Positions 1 through 5,732 of a stretch of DNA of 5,732 bases are shown piece by piece. The position numbers and the translations under genes were made by a program. The notes beneath the pieces are model-generated. The model did not search any database, had not been told where the DNA came from, and saw nothing but the letters and a program-made list of their open reading frames with translations. The DNA is from Escherichia coli (lineage in GTDB: Bacteria > Pseudomonadota > Gammaproteobacteria > Enterobacterales > Enterobacteriaceae), in assembly GCF_030013595.1 (NCBI RefSeq), contig NZ_CP122774.1; one strand, 5' to 3'. The stretch's first letter is position 1; every line of letters starts with the position of its first letter.

Positions 1-495
1 ATGGCGGGCACAGTATGGCGTGACATAAGAACGGGAGAGACTGTTTTTCCTATGGGGCACCTGCACCCTCAGAGGTGCTGTGTTGATGTAAACGGTACTT
101 CTGTAGATATAGAAATTAGTTTTGGTTTTCATGTTTTTACTGATGAAAAACAAACCGGAATGCTGATGAAATTTAAGGAGGAACAGAGGTTTTTTTGTAG
201 GGAACGCTATGAGGGCAGCAAAACTATCGTTCACAGAATACTTACAGCGATAGAAAACGGTGAATACATTACAGCATTTATTTCAAAGGGGCAGGGGCAG
301 CGGTATTACCATCTTAGCCATCATGATGACTTCATTTTGATGGAAATAAGAAAGCCTCAAGATAGAAATAATTCTTTGCGTATTCATGTTGTTACAGCTT
401 ACACGCTTGATGAATGGGGGACTGTAAATAAAGGACGTAACCTGCGGTTTAGATATGTGCTGGAACAGCGACTGCAGGGAAAGAAGATTGTGTAA
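1..495 (+). CDS. Hypothetical protein, 164 aa, family not recognised; probable distal gene of a two-gene cargo cassette (candidate effector)
   Basis: Uninterrupted ORF from ATG at 1 to TAA at 493-495. A hairpin with flanking A and T tracts follows immediately (496-530). If the window ends are joined, GGAGG (5723-5727) lies 5 nt upstream of this ATG. AT-rich codon usage differs from the mob backbone. No motif I can name with confidence. Confidence 0.6.
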   Translation: MAGTVWRDIRTGETVFPMGHLHPQRCCVDVNGTSVDIEISFGFHVFTDEKQTGMLMKFKEEQRFFCRERYEGSKTIVHRILTAIENGEYITAFISKGQGQRYYHLSHHDDFILMEIRKPQDRNNSLRIHVVTAYTLDEWGTVNKGRNLRFRYVLEQRLQGKKIV

Positions 496-530
496 AAAAC
501 AAAAAGCGCCTAAGGCGCCTTTGTTTTTTG
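496..530 (+). terminator. Rho-independent terminator, potentially bidirectional (A tract, GC hairpin, T tract)
   Basis: GC stem gcgcc (506-510) pairs with ggcgc (514-518) around a taa loop. It is preceded by aaaaaacaaaaa and followed by ctttgtttttt, directly after the stop of the 164-aa ORF. Confidence 0.7.
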
Positions 531-680
531 CAGAATTTCGGTCTGGCCTTTCGTTATCCCGCTCACAGGCTGGGAGGGTGTGACCCCCGGCATCAGCACC
601 CCTCTCTCGAGGTTCCGGTTTGTGCTGACAACATTAGTATCCTATTCCACATGTTCGTTGTCAAACTAGCGTACTTTTTG

Positions 681-770
681 GTGTTCATTGGTGTTTATAG
701 GTTGTCATTTACCCTCTTTGTGGTTATAAGTGTTTATAGGTTTTCATTGTTTTTTATAGGTGTTCATATG
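681..770 (+). repeat. Phased direct repeats (operator- or iteron-like) overlapping the promoter, SD and start of the HTH gene
   Basis: gtgtttataggttgtcatt (691-709) and gtgtttataggttttcatt (730-748) match at 18 of 19 positions. A third copy, tttataggtgttcat, lies at 753-767 and a degenerate ggttataag at 722-730. The sub-motif GTKKTCAT begins near 681, 701, 741 and 761, so spacings are multiples of about 10 bp. Confidence 0.55.
702..730 (+). promoter_or_regulatory. Putative sigma70 promoter of the HTH gene
   Basis: -35 TTGTCA (702-707), 17-bp spacer, -10 TATAAG (725-730). This predicts a leader of about 30 nt before ATG 768. Both hexamers are embedded in the repeat array. Confidence 0.45.
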
Positions 771-1070
771 AAGTTGCTTGATAGTAATGAAGTGTGTGAG
801 CTCTTAGGCATCAGTAAGTCCACTTTGTATCGTTGGTGCGGGGTGTCTGAGGATTTTTCTGGCTTGGGTCTAAGTAGCGGTCTTCCTCAGGCTAACGCTA
901 CTCAGAACTCTTTAGGCAGGGAAAATAGGCTCGTTAGGAGGGAATTACAGCAAAACGCTCTCGGTGTCGAAGAGACGCCAAGCGACTTCCCTCGTCCTTT
1001 CAAGATCGGTCGTTCGTTTAAATGGAAAGACGCCGAAATTATGGCTTGGCTTGAAACGCGACGCGTTTGA
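768..1070 (+). CDS. AlpA/excisionase-type (HTH_17, MerR-superfamily-like) DNA-binding protein, 100 aa, with an internal insertion of about 45 aa
   Basis: The N-terminus MKLLDSNEVCELLGISKSTLYRWC is the canonical HTH_17 helix-turn-helix. The C-terminus FPRPFKIGRSFKWKDAEIMAWLE is the canonical wing (KxG-R-x-x-W-x-x-x-E-hydrophobic-x-x-W-hydrophobic). AGGTG (757-761) sits 6 nt before ATG 768. The track ORF starts at 528, but residues 1-80 are a translation of the repeat DNA. Confidence 0.6.
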   Translation: MKLLDSNEVCELLGISKSTLYRWCGVSEDFSGLGLSSGLPQANATQNSLGRENRLVRRELQQNALGVEETPSDFPRPFKIGRSFKWKDAEIMAWLETRRV

Positions 1071-1083
1071 TTGATAGATCTTC

Positions 1084-1112
1084 TTGAGATCATTTGGATC
1101 TCGTCGTAGTCT
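1084..1112 (+). promoter_or_regulatory. RNA II (primer) promoter P2
   Basis: -35 TTGAGA (1084-1089), 17-bp spacer, -10 TAGTCT (1107-1112). This is collinear with pMB1 TTGAGA-17-TAATCT as I recall it. Confidence 0.75.
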
Positions 1113-1120
1113 TTTGTCCT

Positions 1121-1227
1121 GTAAACGAAAAAACCACCATGGCAGGTGGTTTTTCGAAGGTTATTTAATCCTGGCAGATTGAATAACCGTGGTAACAGCC
1201 TTGTGCGAGACGTGTCACCAAATCTGT
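1121..1227 (-). ncRNA. RNA I, antisense copy-number and incompatibility regulator
   Basis: It is the complement of the RNA II 5' region. The start aligns with pMB1 ACAGTATTTGG (here the reverse complement of accaaatctgt, ending at 1227). Three hairpins are visible: aaccacc/ggtggtt, ggttatt-aatc/gatt-aataacc, and ggtaaca/tgtcacc with mismatches. Its own promoter lies just upstream on the minus strand. Confidence 0.8.
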
Positions 1228-1233
1228 CCTTTC

Positions 1234-1263
1234 AGTGTAGCCTCACTAAGGCCACCACTTCAA
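1234..1263 (-). promoter_or_regulatory. RNA I promoter P1
   Basis: The minus strand reads TTGAAG (1263-1258), then 17-18 bp, then TACACT (1239-1234). This is conserved with the pMB1 TTGAAG...CTACACT arrangement. Confidence 0.7.
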
Positions 1264-1697
1264 GAACTTTGAATACATCTCTCGCACATCCTGTTTACCA
1301 ATGGCTACCGCCACTGGCGATTTTTCGTGTCTGTTCCGGGTTGGACTCAAGATGATAGTTACCGGGACAACGTGGTAGTCGGGCTGAACGGGGGGTTCTT
1401 GCATACAGCCCAGCTTGGAGCGAACTGTCTAAACGGAACGGGACGTGGTGATTTAGGTAAAGCTTCCACCACAACACGGATGCCGCAGGACGGGAACAGG
1501 AGAGCGCAAGAGGGAGCCGCCAGGGGGAAACGCCTGGTATCTTTAAGTCCTGTCGGGTTTCGCCACCTCTGACTTGAGCGTCGATTTTTGTGATGCTCGT
1601 CAGGGGGGCGGAGCCTATGGAAAAACGCCAGCGGCGTGGCCTTCTCTGGGTTCTTGTTTTTTGCTCACATGTTTCTTTTGGTGTTATCCCCTGATTC

Positions 1698-1706
1698 TGT
1701 GGATAA
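1698..1706 (-). promoter_or_regulatory. DnaA box downstream of the origin
   Basis: tgtggataa on the + strand equals TTATCCACA on the - strand, an exact consensus DnaA box. It is at the same position as the known box in ColE1/pBR322. Confidence 0.6.
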
Positions 1707-1814
1707 CCGCATTACCGTCTTTGAGTGAGCTGATACCGCTCGCCGCAGCCGAACGACCGAGCGTAGCGAGTCAGTGAGCGAGGAAGCGGAAGAGCGTCGG
1801 AAGTTGCATTTTCT

Positions 1815-1985
1815 CCTTACACATCTGTGCGGCATTTCACACCCGGCATGGCGCACTTTTCATACAATCCGCACTGATGCCGCATGGTTAAGCCAGTATA
1901 CACTCCGCTATCGCTACGTGACTGGGTCATGGCTGCGGCCTGACGCGCCCTGACGGGCTTGTCTGCTCCCGGCATCCGCTCACAG
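1815..1985 (-). other. oriT / bom (basis of mobility) with the ColE1-type nic site
   Basis: Collinear with the remembered pBR322 bom region (gatgccgcat.gttaagccagtatacactccgctatcgctacgtgactgggtcatggctgcg ... ctgacgcgccctgacgggcttgtctgctcccggcatccgct.acagacaagctgtgaccgtctccgggagctg). taagccag (1889-1896) is the complement of CTGG/CTTA, the published MbeA nick motif. This places nic between 1893 and 1892 on the minus strand. Confidence 0.75.
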
Positions 1986-2018
1986 ACAAGCTGTGACCGT
2001 CTCCGGGAGCTGTATGTG

Positions 2019-2210
2019 TCAGAGGTTTTCACCGTCATCCCCGAAGCGTGCGAGGCAGCTGCGGTAAAGCTCATCGGCGTGGTCGTGAAGCGATTCACAG
2101 ATGTCTGCCTGTTCATCCGCGTCCAGTTCGTTGAGCTTTTCCAGCAGCGTTAATGTCTGGCTTCTGATAAAGCGGGCCATGTTAAGGGCGGTTTTTTCCT
2201 GTTTAGTCAC
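2019..2210 (-). CDS. rop: Rop/Rom, RNA I-RNA II kissing-complex stabiliser (63 aa)
   Basis: The translation MTKQEKTALNMARFIRSQTLTLLEKLNELDADEQADICESLHDHADELYRSCLARFGDDGENL matches the Rop sequence of pBR322/ColE1 as I remember it. The position (ori, bom, rop convergent with RNA II) is canonical. Confidence 0.95.
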   Translation of the reverse strand: MTKQEKTALNMARFIRSQTLTLLEKLNELDADEQADICESLHDHADELYRSCLARFGDDGENL

Positions 2211-2250
2211 TGATGCCTCCGTGTAAGGGGGGATTTCTGTTCATGGGGTA

Positions 2251-2598
2251 ATGATACCGATGAAACGCGAGAGGATGCTCACGATACGGGTTACTGATGA
2301 TGAACATGCACGGTTACTGGAACGCTGTGAGGGTAAACAGCTGGCGGTATGGATGCGGCGGGTCTGTCTGGGTGAGCCGGTTGCCCGTTCCGGGAAGCTG
2401 CCGACACTGGCACCGCCGTTACTGCGCCAGCTGGCTGCCATCGGGAATAATCTGAATCAGACGGCGAGGAAGGTGAACAGCGGGCAGTGGTCTTCCGGTG
2501 ACCGGGTTCAGGTGGTGGCCGCACTGATGGCCATCGAGAGAGAGTTGCGCAGCTTACGGCAGGTCGTCAGGGAACATGGAGCGCGGGATGATAGTTAA
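2251..2598 (+). CDS. mbeC: MbeC, ribbon-helix-helix relaxosome accessory protein (MobC-like)
   Basis: MLTIRVTDDEHARLLERCEGKQLAVWMRRVCLGEPVARSGKLPTLAPPLLRQLAAIGNNLNQTARKVNSG... matches the remembered ColE1 MbeC. The RHH beta-strand LTIRVTDDE is present. Its stop (2596-2598) overlaps the mbeA start. The start is ambiguous: in-frame ATGs occur at 2251, 2260 and 2275. Confidence 0.88.
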   Translation: MIPMKRERMLTIRVTDDEHARLLERCEGKQLAVWMRRVCLGEPVARSGKLPTLAPPLLRQLAAIGNNLNQTARKVNSGQWSSGDRVQVVAALMAIERELRSLRQVVREHGARDDS

Positions 2599-4330
2599 GT
2601 TTCATGCCAGGGGAAAAGGCGGTGGCAGTGGTCCGGTTGATTACCTGCTGGGAAGGGAGCGTAACCGGGAAGGGGCAACGGTGCTTCAGGGTAATCCGGA
2701 AGAAGTCCGGGAACTCATCGATGCCACGCCATTTGCGAAGAAATACACGTCAGGTGTTCTGTCGTTCGCGGAGAAGGAGCTGCCGCCTGGAGGGCGTGAA
2801 AAAGTGATGGCGAGCTTTGAGCGTGTACTGATGCCCGGTCTCGAGAAAAATCAGTACAGCATCCTGTGGGTGGAGCACCAGGACAAGGGACGGCTTGAGC
2901 TGAATTTTGTCATTCCGAACATGGAGCTACAGACCGGAAAACGCCTCCAGCCGTACTACGACCGGGCAGACAGGCCGAGAATTGATGCCTGGCAGACGCT
3001 GGTTAATCACCATTACGGGCTGCATGACCCCAACGCCCCGGAGAACCGCCGGACGCTGACCCTTCCTGATAACCTGCCGGAAACGAAACAGGCGCTTGCA
3101 GAGAGCGTCACACGCGGGATAGACGCTCTTTATCATGTCGGGGAGATAAAAGGCCGTCAGGATGTGATTCAGGCGCTCACAGAGGCAGGGCTTGAAGTGG
3201 TCAGGGTGACGCGAAGCAGTATCAGCATTGCAGACCCGAACGGTGGGAAGAATATCAGGCTGAAAGGAGCATTTTATGAGCAATCTTTTACAGACGGGCG
3301 CGGAGTTCGAGAAAAAGCTGAAAGAGAGAGCCGAATCTACAGAGACAATGCTGAACGACGAGTTCAGCAAGCTCGAAAAATCTGTAAGCAAGGCTGTGAC
3401 ATCAAACGAGACGAAAATCAAAGACGCTATAGCCCTGTTCACAGCTTCGACAGAGGAATCACTGAAAAAACACCGGGAAGGGGTGAAAGAGGCGATGATG
3501 CAGCACAGGAAGGACGTGTTAAAGCTGGCAGGGAATACGGGCATGATGTTACTGGGGATGGTCCTTTTCCTGTTTACCGTGAGTGGCGGGACGCTCTGGT
3601 ATCTTGGCGGGCGGATACAGGCGAACCTGGAAGAAATCAGGATACAGGAAGAAACATTGCAGAAACTGAACGCGAAGACATGGGGCGTGGAGTTTGTGCA
3701 GGACGGGAGAAGGAAATTTCTGGTCATCCCGCAGGGGAAATCGGCAACGGTGATTCCCTATCAGGAGAAGGACTGGGTACAACTGACGGAGTGACACAGA
3801 GTGACGGAGCTGGAAAGACATTTGCTGAACGCCTTAGAGCAACTGCAACAGGACTATATGCAGCGGCTGAGCGAATGGGAGAGCGCCTTCGTGGAATTGC
3901 AGAAAATGTTTTCGCTTACGCAACGGGACAACGCGATGCTGAACGAGCAGGTCATGCAGTTGAGTCAGCAGGTGCAGCACTTGAGCGAGCGGACAGAACG
4001 CTTGAGCCAGTTATACAGCGAGAACAGGAGATAAGGGACGAACGGCTGATACAGGAGCGCGAACATGAGTTATCCCTGGAGCGTGAGCGCCAGCTGGAAA
4101 TACAGGAACGGACACTGGATGGCATGGTAATCAGAGACAGGCTAAAATGTTGTCAGCGCGTTTCCGGTGCATTTTTTGGGATAATGGTTGGTTCGGGGGC
4201 ACCGGGAACGCGCTTCAGTCAGACCTTGCTGAAAACACAGGAACGCGTTAAAACGCATACGGGCGCGATTCTGGTGTGTCTTTTGTTGCTGTGTTTTGCC
4301 TCTATTGCCAGATCGCGCTCATTCCCCTGA
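2588..4330 (+). CDS. mbeA: MbeA, MOB-HEN family conjugative relaxase (580 aa here)
   Basis: MIVKFHARGKGGGSGPVDYLLGRERNREGATVLQGNPEEVRELID... matches the remembered ColE1 MbeA. Catalytic Tyr19 is at 2642-2644. The HEN signature H97, E104 and N106 lies in WVEHQDKGRLELNFVIPN. I prefer ATG 2588 to the track start at 2576 because ColE1 MbeA begins MIVKF. After ...IQERTLDG (about 4115) the C-terminal end diverges from ColE1, so the true stop is less certain. Confidence 0.88.
   Translation: MIVKFHARGKGGGSGPVDYLLGRERNREGATVLQGNPEEVRELIDATPFAKKYTSGVLSFAEKELPPGGREKVMASFERVLMPGLEKNQYSILWVEHQDKGRLELNFVIPNMELQTGKRLQPYYDRADRPRIDAWQTLVNHHYGLHDPNAPENRRTLTLPDNLPETKQALAESVTRGIDALYHVGEIKGRQDVIQALTEAGLEVVRVTRSSISIADPNGGKNIRLKGAFYEQSFTDGRGVREKAERESRIYRDNAERRVQQARKICKQGCDIKRDENQRRYSPVHSFDRGITEKTPGRGERGDDAAQEGRVKAGREYGHDVTGDGPFPVYREWRDALVSWRADTGEPGRNQDTGRNIAETEREDMGRGVCAGREKEISGHPAGEIGNGDSLSGEGLGTTDGVTQSDGAGKTFAERLRATATGLYAAAERMGERLRGIAENVFAYATGQRDAERAGHAVESAGAALERADRTLEPVIQREQEIRDERLIQEREHELSLERERQLEIQERTLDGMVIRDRLKCCQRVSGAFFGIMVGSGAPGTRFSQTLLKTQERVKTHTGAILVCLLLLCFASIARSRSFP
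3276..3794 (+). CDS. mbeB: MbeB mobilisation protein (172 aa), nested out of frame within mbeA
   Basis: The MSNLLQTGAEFEKKLKERAESTE... product has a central hydrophobic segment, MMLLGMVLFLFTVSGGTLWYLGG. This agrees with the remembered ColE1 MbeB. GGAG (3266-3269) lies 6 nt before the ATG. Confidence 0.85.
   Translation: MSNLLQTGAEFEKKLKERAESTETMLNDEFSKLEKSVSKAVTSNETKIKDAIALFTASTEESLKKHREGVKEAMMQHRKDVLKLAGNTGMMLLGMVLFLFTVSGGTLWYLGGRIQANLEEIRIQEETLQKLNAKTWGVEFVQDGRRKFLVIPQGKSATVIPYQEKDWVQLTE
3801..4034 (+). CDS. mbeD: MbeD mobilisation / entry-exclusion-associated protein (77 aa), nested out of frame within mbeA
   Basis: GTG start. MTELERHLLNALEQLQQDYMQRLSEWESAF..LQKMFSLTQRDNA.L... matches the remembered ColE1 MbeD. 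GGAG (3788-3791) lies 9 nt upstream. The gene starts 7 nt after the mbeB stop. Confidence 0.8.
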   Translation: MTELERHLLNALEQLQQDYMQRLSEWESAFVELQKMFSLTQRDNAMLNEQVMQLSQQVQHLSERTERLSQLYSENRR

Positions 4331-4429
4331 ACTTCTGTTTTCCCGCTCCGGTCCCCGTCTTCTTCGCTTCCGAAAGCATGAAAAAAATCCGTTTCAGCTG
4401 TCTCTGGCTGGCAATTCCTGCGTGATTCA

Positions 4430-4577
4430 CATGGCTGCATAGCTATGCATGTGGTTAAAATTTACCGGGTGCGATCGCGGCAGTTTTTCGGGTGGTTTGT
4501 TGCCATTTTTACCTGTCTGCTGCCGTGATCGCACCGAACGCGTTTCTGCGGTGCGGGCAACGGATGTTATGGTAAAT
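4430..4577 (+). other. cer: cer-like XerCD/ArgR/PepA multimer-resolution site
   Basis: Collinear with the remembered ColE1 cer (ggttaaaattta.c.gg.gcgatcgcggcagtttttcgggtggtttgttgccatttttacctgtctgctgccgtgatcgc..gaacgcgttt). The core is a GGTGCGGGCAA XerC arm (4550-4560), a cggatg spacer (4561-4566) and a TTATGGTAAAT XerD arm (4567-4577). The ARG-box-position palindrome TGCATAGCTATGCA (4436-4449) lies about 105 bp upstream. The left boundary is approximate. ColE1 cer also encodes the Rcd RNA, which I cannot map here. Confidence 0.85.
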
Positions 4578-4693
4578 ATTGGTGCTCTGGGATGAAGCGA
4601 AAATAGGCTTTTTTTCGCTATTTTAGCCTGTTCAGGAACGGCAAGAGTAAATATCTGGGAGCATGAAGCTCGTTAACCTGAATGGAGATCCTG

Positions 4694-4858
4694 ATGATGG
4701 ACAAAGATACCACCACCCTAAAACGCACTTTGGCTCATAATCGAGCCTTTAGCGATAATATTAACCGCAGTGGCATAGCCTGGTGCTATAACACTGAGAT
4801 TGTACTCGCTGCTTGTGAGGCGATTGAAGCCGAACTACAACGGCGAGGATGTTTGTAA
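4694..4858 (+). CDS. Small hypothetical protein, 54 aa (below the ORF-track cutoff)
   Basis: Hand translation gives MMDKDTTTLKRTLAHNRAFSDNINRSGIAWCYNTEIVLAACEAIEAELQRRGCL, ending at TAA 4856-4858. GGAG (4684-4687) lies 6 nt before ATG 4694. A strong terminator begins 8 nt after the stop. An in-frame ATG at 4682 is an alternative start. Confidence 0.5.
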   Translation: MMDKDTTTLKRTLAHNRAFSDNINRSGIAWCYNTEIVLAACEAIEAELQRRGCL

Positions 4859-4865
4859 CAATAAG

Positions 4866-4889
4866 AAAACCCGCATCAGCGGGTTTTTT
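4866..4889 (+). terminator. Rho-independent terminator
   Basis: aaaacccgc-atca-gcgggtttttt. The stem is 4866-4874 paired with 4879-4887, the loop is atca, and the T run ends at 4889. Confidence 0.8.
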
Positions 4890-4960: not shown

Positions 4961-5005
4961 GGAGCACAAGGAGCACAGGGAGAACCATCGAGCACAACGA
5001 GCACC
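4961..5005 (+). repeat. Five tandem, phased GAG(C/A)AC(A) repeats (iteron- or operator-like)
   Basis: GAGCAC occurs at 4962, 4971, 4990 and 4999, and GAGAAC at 4980. Spacings are 9, 9, 10 and 9 bp. The array sits in a GC-rich patch immediately 5' of a very AT-rich tract and the wHTH gene. Confidence 0.6.
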
Positions 5006-5054
5006 GCCTTCCTCTTATAAATCATTATTAATCATATAATTAAACAACTTCATT

Positions 5055-5191: not shown

Positions 5192-5219
5192 AGTGTCCAT
5201 AGACAAACGGGAGACGACT

Positions 5220-5732
5220 ATGTCCGCAAGAGCAAGAAAAGCAGGTAAGAGAAATCAGTCAGAACGACGTCAGGATTTGATTGAAAAATTGTGGGAAGAC
5301 GACGAAATCGATACTTGGCATCGACTTGAAAATGATGGGTACTCAACAGTTCCACGTTATTTGCCTTTGATAGGCGATCTCATGGATGGTCTGTCAAAAG
5401 GATCACCATTATCAACAACCTACTTGGCTTTATGGTTCAGGGTTTCTGATGAGGGGTTGATTGAAATAAGAGATAAAGCAGCACTGGCTTTTGAATCAGG
5501 GTTCGCTAGTGAAAGAGGCGTAACTACATGGGCAGGGAGAATGAAAAAGCTAAAAGAACTGGGGTTCATATCCTGTCGTGAAGGCAGCACCGGTGAATTT
5601 CATTACGTGTTAATTGTTCACCCATTAGTTGCAGTCAAAAAGCTGCTTGATGAAGGGATTATCCCTAAAGGAAAGACTTATAACATTTTGTCGGAGCGTG
5701 TAATTGAGGTGGGAGCCTCTTGGGAGGGTTAA
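5220..5732 (+). CDS. Winged-helix-turn-helix-like DNA-binding protein, 170 aa (regulator or Rep-like); proximal gene of the cargo cassette
   Basis: GGGAG (5209-5213) lies 6 nt before ATG 5220, which I prefer to the track GTG at 5193. The layout GYSTVPRYLPL..L...LS..STTYLALWFRV(7)IEIRDKAALAFESGFASERGVTTWAGRMKKLKELGFISCREGSTGEFHYVLIVHP is the helix/helix/recognition-helix/beta-wing pattern of MarR-, RepL- and replisome-organiser-type wHTH domains. The N-terminus is basic, MSARARKAGKRNQSERR. The family is not identified. Confidence 0.65.
   Translation: MSARARKAGKRNQSERRQDLIEKLWEDDEIDTWHRLENDGYSTVPRYLPLIGDLMDGLSKGSPLSTTYLALWFRVSDEGLIEIRDKAALAFESGFASERGVTTWAGRMKKLKELGFISCREGSTGEFHYVLIVHPLVAVKKLLDEGIIPKGKTYNILSERVIEVGASWEG

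Follow-up and report, generated by a model that had tools for sequence, protein, structure and literature searches.

Analysis of a 5,732-nucleotide stretch of Escherichia coli plasmid DNA (hereafter the window, meaning the whole of that stretch) revealed an array of eight direct repeats of 10 bp laid over the start of a gene for a 100-residue AlpA-like protein. The repeats are genuine and occur far above chance. Our analysis suggests that this array is probably the cognate operator of the adjacent AlpA-like winged-helix protein, which would bind it in negative autoregulation. From the same-strand arrangement of the 10-bp units, the protein is predicted to oligomerise cooperatively and head-to-tail on the array. 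The coordinates of the features are listed in Table 1.

Table 1. Features in and around the repeat array, with positions counted from the first nucleotide of the window.
Feature	Position	Strand	Details
Whole array	681-769	+	Eight same-strand 10-bp units arranged as three, a 9-bp gap and five
Left block, units 1-3	681-710	+	Candidate -35 within unit 3
Non-consensus stretch of 9 bp	711-719	+	ACCCTCTTT; in the promoter spacer; shifts the register by 1 bp
Right block, units 4-8	720-769	+	Spans the candidate -10, the predicted transcription start, the Shine-Dalgarno and the AT of the ATG
Possible degenerate in-phase units	651-680	+	651 (ATGTTCGTTG), 661 and 671; weak
Candidate σ70 promoter of the alpA-like gene	702-730	+	TTGTCA (702-707), 17-bp spacer, TATAAG (725-730)
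Shine-Dalgarno	758-762	+	AGGTG; 5 nt 5' of the ATG (768); across the junction of units 7 and 8
alpA-like gene, 100 aa	768-1070	+	HTH 3-24, disordered variable insertion 29-67, wing and C-terminal helix 72-99
sraL-like Hfq-binding sRNA gene	496-629	-	RF01408, 84.7 bits (gathering score 39), full model 1-142
Divergent σ70 promoter of the sraL-like sRNA	636-664	-	TTGACA (664-659), 17-bp spacer, GATACT (641-636)
Promoter of ColE1 RNAII (replication primer), presumed by analogy	1084-1112	+	TTGAGA (1084-1089), 17-bp spacer, TAGTCT (1107-1112)
RNAI	1125-1226	-	77.1 bits

Anatomy and statistics of the repeat array

The eight units start at positions 681, 691, 701, 720, 730, 740, 750 and 760 of the plus strand and share the 10-bp consensus G-T-n-n-Y-Y-A-T-W-G, one unit per turn of DNA. 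Units 1 to 3 read GTGTTCATTG (681), GTGTTTATAG (691) and GTTGTCATTT (701), and units 4 to 8 read GTGGTTATAA (720), GTGTTTATAG (730), GTTTTCATTG (740), TTTTTTATAG (750) and GTGTTCATAT (760). Self-identity of positions 675-769 at a lag of 10 is 0.60, which is the maximum among all 95-nt segments of the plasmid (mean 0.26, sd 0.06) and was matched by none of 5000 dinucleotide shuffles. Two 19-bp copies had been described in the original prediction, and they are present at 691-709 (GTGTTTATAGGTTGTCATT) and 730-748 (GTGTTTATAGGTTTTCATT) with one mismatch between them, as is the third, partial copy, TTATAGGTGTTCAT, at 754-767. Taking a copy of 19-20 bp as the basic unit was nevertheless mistaken: self-identity at a lag of 20 (0.49) is weaker than at a lag of 10, and the actual unit is 10 bp.

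Searches with individual motifs gave consistent results. The sub-motif GTKKTCAT recurs as had been claimed, with the spacings corrected from 20, 40 and 20 to 20, 39 and 20; it is found at 681, 701, 740 and 760 and at an unrelated site, 125, and these five matches compare with 0.68 expected, a count attained by none of 200 shuffles. The 14-mer TTATAGGTKKTCAT, with up to three mismatches allowed, has eight matches against 1.28 expected, six of them in 675-767, and none of 200 shuffles reached eight. A repeat-family search returned a family of 34 nt whose copies are spaced by 39, 10 and 10. Tandem Repeats Finder made no array call at 675-769. The copies have presumably diverged too far for this tool, which according to its documentation needs a similarity of about 70% between copies, and the array was demonstrated by autocorrelation and matrices instead.

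No second phased cluster was found elsewhere in the plasmid, where the matrix matches were isolated and at background level (4499, 5193 and 1299, minus strand). Among the degenerate units to the left of unit 1, only that at 651 exceeds 5 bits with the homologue matrix (6.3 bits, in phase with 681); more speculatively, these units would extend a spreading filament across the neighbouring sRNA promoter. The array is T-rich and its T-runs are phased.

Promoter and translation signals inside the array

The candidate promoter of the alpA-like gene, with 10 of 12 consensus matches, is the best plus-strand σ70 candidate in the interval from the upstream terminator to the ATG (523-775), and both its hexamers and its 17-bp spacer lie where the original prediction had put them. 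A stricter promoter scan left it uncalled because the -10 TATAAG has no T at position 6. Transcription is predicted to start near 737. The claimed overlap of the array with the promoter candidate, the predicted start and the Shine-Dalgarno was observed, and it extends to the ATG.

Both hexamers and the 17-bp spacing are kept in four relatives (L005, L008, L057 and L059; L numbers denote homologue loci), where the sequence of the spacer diverges, and the best candidates in L066, L067, L064 and L009 likewise take a repeat unit (TTGTCA or TTGCCA) as the -35. As both hexamers are also repeat cores, promoter constraint and binding-site constraint are inseparable in this conservation. The sequence TAGGTTGTCATT of the left block is invariant in relatives at 71-87% protein identity, and TATAGGTG is conserved among relatives except for one substitution in L057. 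The stretch at 711-719 varies freely among relatives and the flanking unit cores are fixed.

The AlpA-like protein

The protein matched Pfam HTH_17 with 40.1 bits (cut-off 27) and Pfam Phage_AlpA with 31.2 bits (cut-off 21), the latter in two stretches because of an insertion in the domain. The AF2 model has the order β-α-α-(disordered 29-67)-β-β-α, with strands E3-5, E78-80 and E83-87 and helices H6-13, H17-24 and H88-99; pLDDT is 80-87 in the ordered parts and below 50 at residues 29-67. Both marks of the AlpA family, a profile score above cut-off and the β-α-α-β-β-α fold, are therefore present, the fold by model. The protein thus models as a BldC/Xis/RdfS-like winged helix with a disordered insertion of about 40 residues.

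The top fold matches in the PDB were the BldC-DNA complexes 6ama and 6amk (probability 0.98, target TM 0.73-0.78), with further matches to RdfS (8dgl) and the AlpA-family GIsul2 excisionase (8c3t), the target TM ranging from 0.6 to 0.78 overall; TubR stood far down the list (probability 0.06). The small size of the domain and its division by the insertion keep the E-values of the fold search weak (0.2-0.5). Sequence comparisons gave less: a search of PDB sequences with the family profile returned nothing significant (best E = 0.18), the NCBIfam excisionase model TIGR01764 scored 27.8 bits, below its cut-off of 28.8, and matches to PHROG excisionase families were weak and below cut-off (E about 1e-6). 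A defence-system search (PADLOC) with the protein or the cargo gave only a weak mad1 HTH match (E = 9e-4).

Alignment of the family showed the recognition helix ISKSTLYRW to be almost invariant, with changes from Y to F only. The disordered loop lies between the recognition helix and the wing and measures about 35 to 60 residues in most members of the clade, being shorter in a few. One relative of 62 aa (P0047) has no room for the whole insertion, which suggests that binding and repression may not depend on it. Roughly 21 clusters of the family were found at E <= 1e-10. A long open reading frame (528-1070, 180 aa) runs through the array, and the idea that the array is a coding repeat was rejected, since every family member aligns from MKLLDS at ATG 768 and N-terminal extensions upstream of MKLLDS are not conserved in the alignment. 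In GenBank record CP057081.1 the gene is annotated as a 189-aa HTH protein extended through the array; in several RefSeq records it is uncalled.

Occurrence of the array with the gene

Distant homologues of 44-71% identity were identified in Erwinia, Pectobacterium, Enterobacter, Pseudomonas, metagenomic plasmids and one viral contig, and upstream of them lie arrays of same-strand units that repeat every 10 bp and have the core YCAT. When the matrix of the window units was run on the 160 nt preceding the gene at 12 independent homologue loci, the plus strand had 26 matches against 4.7 expected (Poisson 1e-11), the minus strand giving six, near background, and 11 of the 16 gaps between successive matches were exact multiples of 10 (binomial 3e-8). 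Addition of closer relatives raised the count to 39 against 5.9 expected. A matrix built from the homologues only recovers exactly the eight starts in the window, in phase, with scores of 12.1, 8.7, 10.8, 7.3, 8.7, 12.4, 5.1 and 10.4 bits for units 1 to 8. The original prediction had proposed comparison of homologue upstream regions as a check, and the comparison supports it: period, strand and YCAT core are shared by independent lineages and by different replicons.

The period is 10 in every lineage, and not 9, 11 or 12, and the arrays adjoin the gene's own start in all lineages; at the threshold used, no clear array was found in L033 and L068. No variation in array copy number was seen among close relatives, which differ by point changes and one 2-nt change in a T-run (L027). 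The genomic contexts include a ColE1 plasmid (the window), a Rep3 plasmid (L062), 2.5-kb plasmids with an Abi_2-like gene (L063), a Pseudomonas chromosome (L009, L065) and one viral contig (listed both as L032 and as L069). Because these contexts differ, the array is tied to the gene and not to the replicon. The family is almost confined to contigs of 1-7 kb, that is, to small plasmids, and tblastn found no homologue in phage GenBank records.

Proposed mode of action

In the reading that we favour, one protomer would bind each 10-bp unit through the core YCAT, head-to-tail and one per helical turn, and strong cooperativity between neighbours would build a short nucleoprotein filament that runs along a single face of the bent DNA. 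Spreading could bridge the 9-bp non-consensus gap. Such a filament would mask the -35, the -10, the region of the transcription start, the Shine-Dalgarno and the ATG, and since it would cover all start signals, occupancy would silence the promoter of the protein's own gene, a negative autoregulation that would set in at a steep threshold; the sRNA promoter that lies back-to-back with it, 16 bp left of the array, might be damped too. Binding to the array, the stoichiometry of one protomer per unit, the cooperativity, the bending and the regulatory sign are predicted in this scheme from the layout of the units and from related proteins. The sign is probably repressive, and it is uncertain because proteins of the BldC type activate as well as repress. 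The computational tests agree with the original proposal of cooperative binding on one face by the downstream HTH protein in autoregulation, in which binding and sign are inferred.

Proteins of the same fold (BldC, Xis, RdfS) bind in head-to-tail order on direct repeats one helical turn apart (PMC7498355, PMC5859096, PMC11963761), and RDFs assemble head-to-tail on such tandem repeats (PMC7498355). The type of control is already known, and the protein family is new and rare; current understanding is not overturned by any of these results. If the reading is true, this study would add a clean, motif-defined case to the head-to-tail winged helices of the Xis/BldC type, in which eight sites with the core YCAT follow one another at exactly 10 bp and a recombinase is absent. 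With a protein of 100 aa, an operator of 90 bp and an E. coli plasmid of 5.7 kb, the system is small and tractable; it would lend itself to studies of neighbour cooperativity, of spreading and of the role of a disordered loop inside a winged helix, and it would offer the first functional handle on an unannotated gene of a recurrent ColE1 cargo block. The sraL-like sRNA of the plasmid and transcription reading through into the replication primer are two possible outputs. A broader proposal, which we consider distinctly improbable, is that the split-AlpA clade and its private 10-bp array form a portable, self-contained switch cassette of small plasmids and phage morons, with a filament that would be assembled or dissolved through the disordered loop on a signal, for example stationary phase or infection by a phage, and that would gate toxic or defence cargo (Abi_2-like, PIN), the sraL-like sRNA and, on ColE1 plasmids, read-through into RNAII and hence copy number.

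Comparison with known systems

Apl of coliphage 186 and Cox of P2 are, like the window protein, small Xis-like DNA-binding proteins with same-strand sites at promoters. Their five to seven sites at 10-11 bp are bound with cooperativity between neighbours, with bending and with spreading into non-specific DNA, and the flanking promoters are repressed (PMC7498355; PMC3936717); in the case of Apl, seven sites spaced by 10-11 bp separate two promoters, both of which are repressed (PMC7498355). The array of this study has eight units at 10 bp beside two promoters that are divergent, whereas the promoters of Apl and Cox face each other. Apl and Cox have a further role at attP, together with an integrase, whereas the present plasmid has neither a recombinase nor an att site. 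Beyond the fold class, no sequence relationship to them can be detected, and nothing comparable to the 40-residue disordered insertion is described in either.

BldC of Streptomyces, a MerR-like protein without the dimerisation domain, is the best structural match and also stands alone, with no recombinase. It forms filaments, binding head-to-tail to variable numbers of direct repeats, one turn per protomer, and distorting the DNA (PMC5859096; PMC11963761). The BldC repeat is AATT-N4-C, at 9 bp in whiI, compared with G-T-n-n-Y-C-A-T-W-G here, and identity in the fold alignment is 11-12%, so the likeness is one of fold and binding geometry only. BldC lacks an insertion between recognition helix and wing, and it is a chromosomal global regulator, whereas the window protein is encoded beside its own array on small plasmids.

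RdfS of ICEMlSymR7A forms head-to-tail oligomers and acts on its own promoter in negative autoregulation (PMC11963761). Like the GIsul2 excisionase, it resembles the window protein in its winged-helix fold, but both serve the integrases of integrative elements. Moreover, RdfS has sites without a clear sequence motif and an extra N-terminal oligomerisation helix, in contrast to the clear 10-bp motif here and a protein that lacks the helix. In the parC/ParR system of plasmid R1 and in tubC/TubR, same-strand repeats of 10-12 bp stand in two blocks by the promoter of the binding protein, which binds cooperatively and represses itself. The array shares this two-block tandem arrangement at the binding protein's own promoter; ParR, however, is a ribbon-helix-helix protein, and both systems need a filament-forming NTPase, which is not encoded here.

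Alternative explanations

The same protein might act positively, either by distorting the promoter as BldC and MerR-type regulators do or by being loaded from the array onto RNA polymerase as an antiterminator, and so drive the downstream gene or transcription towards RNAII. An antiterminator of this kind has been reported in the AlpA of P. aeruginosa. The imperfect -10 would suit an activated promoter, and homologues lie directly 5' of cargo genes (Abi_2-like in L060, L063 and L066, PIN7 in L032, a glycosyltransferase in L065). Also in favour of activation, RdfS activates PintS, RdfS1271 activates the rdfG and rdfM promoters (PMC11963761), and the BldC regulon includes key developmental regulators (PMC5859096). 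However, units that run across the -10, the start region, the Shine-Dalgarno and the ATG form a pattern typical of occlusion and not of class I or II activation, the spacer is already at the optimal 17 bp, so that re-phasing of the MerR type is needless, and no downstream terminator that an antiterminator would have to overcome was found in the window. Positive action is judged unlikely. A function in recombination, in which the array would be an architectural RDF site and the protein would direct an integrase encoded elsewhere, or XerCD at the cer-like site, drew on the excisionase matches below cut-off and on the folds of RdfS and the GIsul2 excisionase. Tandem same-strand sites about one turn apart, the RDF signature (PMC7498355), are present in the window and in homologues, the cargo block starts at a Xer core (4550-4577) and one homologue (L004) lies between Xer-like cores. 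Yet no partner tyrosine or serine recombinase was found in plasmid annotations, cargo ORFs or homologue flanks (about 0.4 to 6 kb a side in the members examined), no att arm beside a recombination core was seen, the sole recognised core being that at 4550-4577, about 1.9 kb from the array, and the array always abuts the start of its own gene and not an att-like core. With no recombinase present, this role has a very low probability, slightly lower than that given to plasmid maintenance below, and of the excisionase- or RDF-type option in the original prediction the binding mode is supported and the recombination function is not.

A site for plasmid maintenance, either centromere-like, with the disordered insertion mediating interactions in plasmid clustering, or a copy-number valve, is a very unlikely alternative to the autoregulatory operator. 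The valve was considered because transcription from the array promoter would head into the RNAII primer promoter, whose -35 lies 13 nt from the stop codon of the alpA-like gene with no terminator called between, and the centromere because the layout of three units, a gap and five round a promoter resembles parC of plasmid R1; the confinement of the family to small contigs fits both. Against this, no ParA, ParM or TubZ partner is annotated or detected, high-copy ColE1 plasmids do not need active partition, and the family is represented on chromosomes and on a viral contig too, where the genes downstream are different ones, so that a position beside the origin is not a trait of the family. A partition centromere would moreover have ParA, ParM or TubZ in the same operon. 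An iteron or second origin, which would have iterons of about 17-22 bp beside an AT-rich stretch and a DnaA box, next to the gene of a Rep initiator, was rejected on the ColE1-type replicon, the lack of a Rep domain in the cargo ORFs and the presence of arrays on unrelated replicons. The least probable explanation, to which we give very little weight, is that the repeats act through a host factor or through DNA shape (PhoB, H-NS or another nucleoid protein on phased T-tracts, or curvature as an upstream element) or are non-functional slippage repeats. The T-rich array with its phased T-runs would suit such a use, and its TGTCAT/TTGTCAT resembles the pho box, with its core CTGTCAT. A scan for the pho box, defined as at least two 11-bp repeats of CTGTCAT and four A/T bases 10 bp upstream of the -10, nevertheless gave no match at up to three mismatches, and the period is 10 in all lineages against 11 bp in the pho box, so a PhoB operator was rejected. 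The GC-richer arrays of Pseudomonas retain the CCAT/TCAT core without T-tracts, which indicates conservation of sequence and not only of shape, and arrays co-occur with a rare gene family across hosts and replicons.

Plasmid context and neighbouring genes

The window matches whole plasmids of 5775 bp end to end, whose annotated genes are Mob, Rop, HTH and hypothetical only. The replicon is of the ColE1 type, with RNAI (77.1 bits) and the Rop and Mob genes. The -35 of the RNAII promoter, whose hexamers we assign by analogy with the RNAII promoter of pBR322/ColE1, starts 13 nt past the stop codon of the alpA-like gene, and the scan called no terminator between 1070 and 1120.

The sraL-like sRNA, predicted to be about 134 nt long, is transcribed away from the array and ends at a bidirectional terminator (502-522). 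Its promoter, which the original prediction had missed, has 10 of 12 matches in the promoter scan and a -35 placed 16 bp left of unit 1; it is conserved in relatives, where the -10 is improved to GATAAT, and transcription is predicted to start near 629, at the same place as the Rfam match has its 5' end. Blastn gave no chromosomal match in 5426 E. coli genomes that would point to a chromosomal origin of the sRNA. The cargo block begins exactly at the cer-like Xer core, and two Xer-like cores flank the L004 homologue. The block is recurrent in ColE1-type plasmids of human and pig E. coli.

An array of 10-bp units over the candidate alpA-like promoter

Analysis of the region upstream of the alpA-like gene revealed that the deeper structure of the array is a 10-bp unit, repeated eight times on one strand (see table). 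The lag-10 self-identity of the array (0.60) is the highest of all 95-nt windows in the plasmid (mean 0.26, sd 0.06) and was reached by none of 5000 dinucleotide-preserving shuffles; self-identity at lag 20 is 0.49. The repeats listed in the original prediction were all found in place, save that one spacing of the GTKKTCAT sub-motif is 39 and not 40 bp. Its two 19-bp copies are present but are not the basic unit; each is a pair of 10-bp units, since lag 10 dominates and lag 20 is weaker. The 14-mer motif occurs 8 times against 1.28 expected and GTKKTCAT 5 times against 0.68, and no shuffle scored as high for either. The array was not detected by Tandem Repeats Finder.

The bidirectional terminator should end transcripts coming from the upstream operon, and the alpA-like gene therefore needs its own promoter. 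The only good σ70 candidate on the + strand between this terminator and the ATG matches at 10 of 12 positions; a strict scan did not call it because its -10 lacks T at position 6. Unit 3 has the candidate -35 as its core and unit 4 contains the candidate -10, while units 5 to 8 span the inferred start, the Shine-Dalgarno sequence and the ATG. At four loci holding homologues (L066, L067, L064 and L009) the best promoter candidate likewise takes a TTGTCA or TTGCCA unit as -35. As the hexamers are themselves repeat cores, their conservation is no proof of promoter function.

Features of the window (approximate positions marked ~)
Feature	Position	Strand	Remarks
YjaZ-family ORF	1-495		164 aa
sraL (RF01408) match	496-629	-	Hfq-binding sRNA family; full-length; Rfam 84.7 bits, gathering score 39
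Bidirectional terminator	502-522		
sRNA σ70 promoter	664-659, 641-636	-	TTGACA, 17-bp spacer, GATACT
Unit 1	681	+	GTGTTCATTG
Unit 2	691	+	GTGTTTATAG
Unit 3	701	+	GTTGTCATTT
Candidate alpA-like promoter	702-707, 725-730	+	TTGTCA, 17-bp spacer, TATAAG; inferred start near 737
Non-consensus stretch	711-719		9 bp, between units 3 and 4
Unit 4	720	+	GTGGTTATAA
Unit 5	730	+	GTGTTTATAG
Unit 6	740	+	GTTTTCATTG
Unit 7	750	+	TTTTTTATAG
Shine-Dalgarno sequence	758-762	+	
Unit 8	760	+	GTGTTCATAT
alpA-like gene	768-1070	+	100 aa; stop codon 1068-1070
ColE1-type backbone	~1077-4577		rop, mobC with mbeA, mbeB, mbeD
Presumed RNAII promoter	1084-1089, 1107-1112		TTGAGA, TAGTCT
RNAI	1125-1226	-	
Presumed cer-like Xer core	4550-4577		GGTGCGGGCAA-CGGATG-TTATGGTAAAT; backbone end
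58-aa ORF	4682-4858		phrog_35409 match, E = 3e-13, unknown function
GC-rich hairpin and T-run	~4867-4888		intrinsic terminator-like
9-bp tandem repeat	4961-5004		GGAGCACAA, 4.8 copies
10-bp tandem repeat	5015-5039		TTATAAATCA, 2.6 copies
170/179-aa ORF	5193-5732		

Conservation of the array across homologues

Loci of family members were drawn from genomes, assemblies, metagenomes and plasmid records. Where protein identity is 87-91% (E. coli, Enterobacter kobei, E. hormaechei), the array is kept with few point changes. In relatives with about 70% identity (Erwinia, Pectobacterium, metagenomes) the array geometry is kept, TAGGTTGTCATT, TTATAA, TCATTGTT and TATAGGTG are conserved, and the 15 bp between the promoter hexamers diverge freely. 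The upstream regions of distant members (44-62% identity) are unalignable, yet same-strand 10-bp units are present. Seven contiguous units occur in Pseudomonas sp. PA15 (ATTGTCATAG, GGTTCCATTA, ACATCCATAA, GACGCCATTT, GTTGTCATTG, GCTATCATTG, GCGATCATGA), seven in viral contig L032 (the L069 contig), six or seven in P. fluorescens, three in an Enterobacter kobei plasmid (GTACTCATTG, ATTGTCATTG, GTATTCATAG) and three to six in several metagenomic plasmids. Two further loci, L033 and L068, gave no clear array at the threshold used.

A matrix of the eight window units, applied to 160 nt upstream at 12 independent loci, found 26 hits on the + strand against 4.7 expected (Poisson 1e-11) and 6 on the minus strand, close to background. 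Gaps between successive hits were exact multiples of 10 in 11 of 16 cases (binomial 3e-8), and 10, not 9, 11 or 12, is the preferred period in every lineage. A second matrix, made only of 32 units from distant homologues (consensus GTTTTCATTG, information concentrated in YCAT), picked exactly the eight window units, in phase, and found only isolated background-level hits in the rest of the plasmid.

The alpA-like protein and its proposed binding mode

The 100-aa product scores above the Pfam cut-offs for HTH_17 and Phage_AlpA, the latter matching in two pieces. Alignment of the family revealed a near-invariant N-terminal helix-turn-helix (MKLLDSxEVCELLGISKSTLYRWCG), an unconserved linker, some 35 to 60 residues long in most members, and a conserved C-terminal wing and helix (FPRPFKIGRxxKWxxxEIxxWLE). 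The AlphaFold2 model comprises β1, α1, α2, residues 29-67 at pLDDT <50, a β-hairpin and α3. Residues 29-67 make up a disordered insertion of ~40 residues between recognition helix and wing, whose length differs across the family; the 62-aa relative P0047 is too short for the full insertion. Among solved structures, the model comes closest to the BldC-DNA complexes 6ama and 6amk (probability 0.98, target-normalised TM 0.73-0.78), the RdfS excisionase 8dgl and the AlpA-family GIsul2 excisionase 8c3t. E-values for these fold matches are weak (0.2-0.5), in keeping with a domain of 55 residues that an insertion interrupts. Members of this rare clade are few: a word-indexed search gave 34 clusters, and a profile search run exhaustively over 1.84 billion representatives gave 21 at E <= 1e-10, beyond which the hits are ordinary AlpA/Xis-like proteins, 55-75 aa long, that align in two stretches. 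A TTG-initiated long ORF (528-1070) runs through the array, and one GenBank record, CP057081.1 (L003, 647-1213), annotates it as a 189-aa HTH protein; several RefSeq records leave the 100-aa gene unannotated. The alignment of family members favours the ATG at 768 as the genuine start.

RDFs occupy tandem repeats one turn apart head to tail and highly cooperatively, bending the DNA and extending into non-specific sequence; for Apl of phage 186, seven sites of this kind, spaced 10-11 bp apart, lie between two promoters, both of which it represses (PMC7498355). Cox of P2 is likewise multifunctional, acting as repressor and as RDF (PMC3936717). BldC lacks a recombinase partner and assembles into filaments on direct repeats whose number varies, each protomer taking up one turn (PMC5859096; PMC11963761), and RdfS forms head-to-tail oligomers and exerts negative autoregulation at its own promoter (PMC11963761). 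The geometry of the array is exactly that of sites of the Apl/RDF, BldC and RdfS class, and it co-occurs with a protein of the same fold; on these two grounds we propose that one protomer would occupy each 10-bp unit, with YCAT read by the invariant recognition helix. Adjacent protomers would touch wing to HTH, and a 3 + 5 filament would bridge the 9-bp gap. By covering the promoter and the ribosome-binding region, such a filament would impose a threshold-like negative autoregulation. All functional statements here rest on sequence, comparative and modelling evidence, by which the array is very probably the cognate site of the alpA-like protein; the full statement, cognate site plus repression, we consider fairly likely.

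Positive control or antitermination by the alpA-like protein, in place of repression, is unlikely. Array and gene occur together on ColE1 (the window), Rep3 (L062), Pseudomonas chromosomes and a viral contig with lysis genes; a plasmid-maintenance role for the array, as a centromere-like element or copy-number valve, appears improbable. An RDF site for an unseen recombinase or Xer, close to the excisionase-type site of the original prediction, would share the geometry of known RDF sites; the window plasmid encodes no integrase, Rep or partition NTPase anywhere, and in the readable flanks of family members none was found beside the gene, except at L062, where a Rep3 gene lies ~2.2 kb downstream on the opposite strand. 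We rate this reading slightly lower still, and a host factor, DNA curvature or no function, set beside a phased pattern recurring across lineages, lowest. The pho box was tested and excluded, and iterons and partition centromeres were ruled out since their defining partner proteins are missing.

For repression by a cognate filament, the binding mode and logic have precedents in Apl and Cox, BldC and RdfS. The novelty lies in the family, a rare AlpA clade whose winged helix is interrupted by a disordered insertion; in the defined 10-bp YCAT motif of this clade and its stand-alone occurrence, with no recombinase, on small plasmids; and in the local wiring, set between the promoter of a plasmid sraL-like sRNA and that of the ColE1 primer.

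Neighbouring sRNA and replication primer

The sraL-like sRNA and its promoter were overlooked in the original prediction. The predicted start of this promoter is the 5' end of the Rfam match, and the promoter is kept in relatives, where the -10 improves to GATAAT. A divergent control region of 138 bp contains the array, whose first unit is 16 bp from the sRNA -35. One weak in-phase unit occurs at 651 (6.3 bits), and on this hint we speculate that a filament might, by spreading, extend to the sRNA promoter. A blastn search of 5426 complete E. coli genomes found the sRNA in 23 places, all on plasmids and none chromosomal. Some of these plasmids lack the alpA-like gene and have YjaZ-family genes adjoining and different upstream sequence, so the sRNA is independent of the array; on plasmids without the alpA-like gene, the annotated genes that the match overlaps are listed as YjaZ family or hypothetical protein.

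Downstream of the array, the alpA-like stop codon lies 13 nt from the putative RNAII promoter, which we place by analogy with pBR322 and which the position of RNAI fits. A terminator scan between the two called none. Transcription from the array promoter would thus enter the replication primer region, and we infer that tight control of this promoter would limit read-through into the primer.

Plasmid and gene neighbourhoods

The window matches, end to end and at ~99% identity, 5775-bp mobilizable plasmids of the ColE1 type, circular molecules found in E. coli from humans and pigs; relative to one such record it has three indels and 17 substituted bases, none within 600-800. Compared with NZ_CP122590.1, 23 bp are missing at 1935, within a 10-bp GCGCCCTGAC repeat, and 11 bp at 4123, close to where the mob region ends. 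The remainder outside the backbone is a cargo block of about 2.2 kb, in the order 58-aa ORF, 9-bp repeats, AT-rich stretch, 170/179-aa ORF, YjaZ-family ORF, bidirectional terminator, array region and 100-aa gene. Similarity to other ColE1 backbones breaks off at ~4554-4578, the end of what we take to be a cer-like Xer core, and returns at ~1077, shortly ahead of the putative RNAII promoter; in Enterobacter kobei plasmid L004 (4640-4880) a homologous gene and array adjoin two GTTATGGTAAAT Xer-like cores. This suggests, from sequence comparison, cargo exchange at Xer sites.

The 58-aa ORF opens the cargo block and is followed by the hairpin. The GGAGCACAA repeat lies upstream of the AT-rich stretch and 170/179-aa ORF, and its copy number is polymorphic, as the window has one unit fewer than NZ_CP122590.1. 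The TTATAAATCA repeat, in the AT-rich region ahead of the 170/179-aa ORF, contains TCAT cores with a 10-bp spacing (5022 and 5032) that bear a loose resemblance to the array core; matrix scores there are at background level. Because the circular plasmid was cut between them in the window, the TAA of the 170/179-aa ORF directly abuts the ATG of the YjaZ-family ORF. Searches of Pfam, NCBIfam, PADLOC and PHROGs gave no family match for the 170/179-aa protein; the pair of ORFs is kept with the sRNA and alpA-like gene in Erwinia, Pectobacterium and metagenomic plasmids.

Among homologue loci, the YjaZ pair is the upstream neighbour in the window, L008 and L057-L059. The neighbour is a large glycosyltransferase at L065, and the downstream gene encodes a PIN7-domain protein on viral contig L032. 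An Abi_2-like (abortive infection) gene lies downstream at L060, L063 and L066 (plasmids or contigs of 2.5-5.7 kb), the matches being just under the Pfam cut-off (best 24.5 bits against 25.6). These genes lie at 3318-4073, 2670-3428 and 2506-3423, respectively, on contigs of 3.5-5.7 kb, and L063 resembles a tandem dimer of a ~2.5-kb plasmid with only the alpA-like and Abi_2-like genes.
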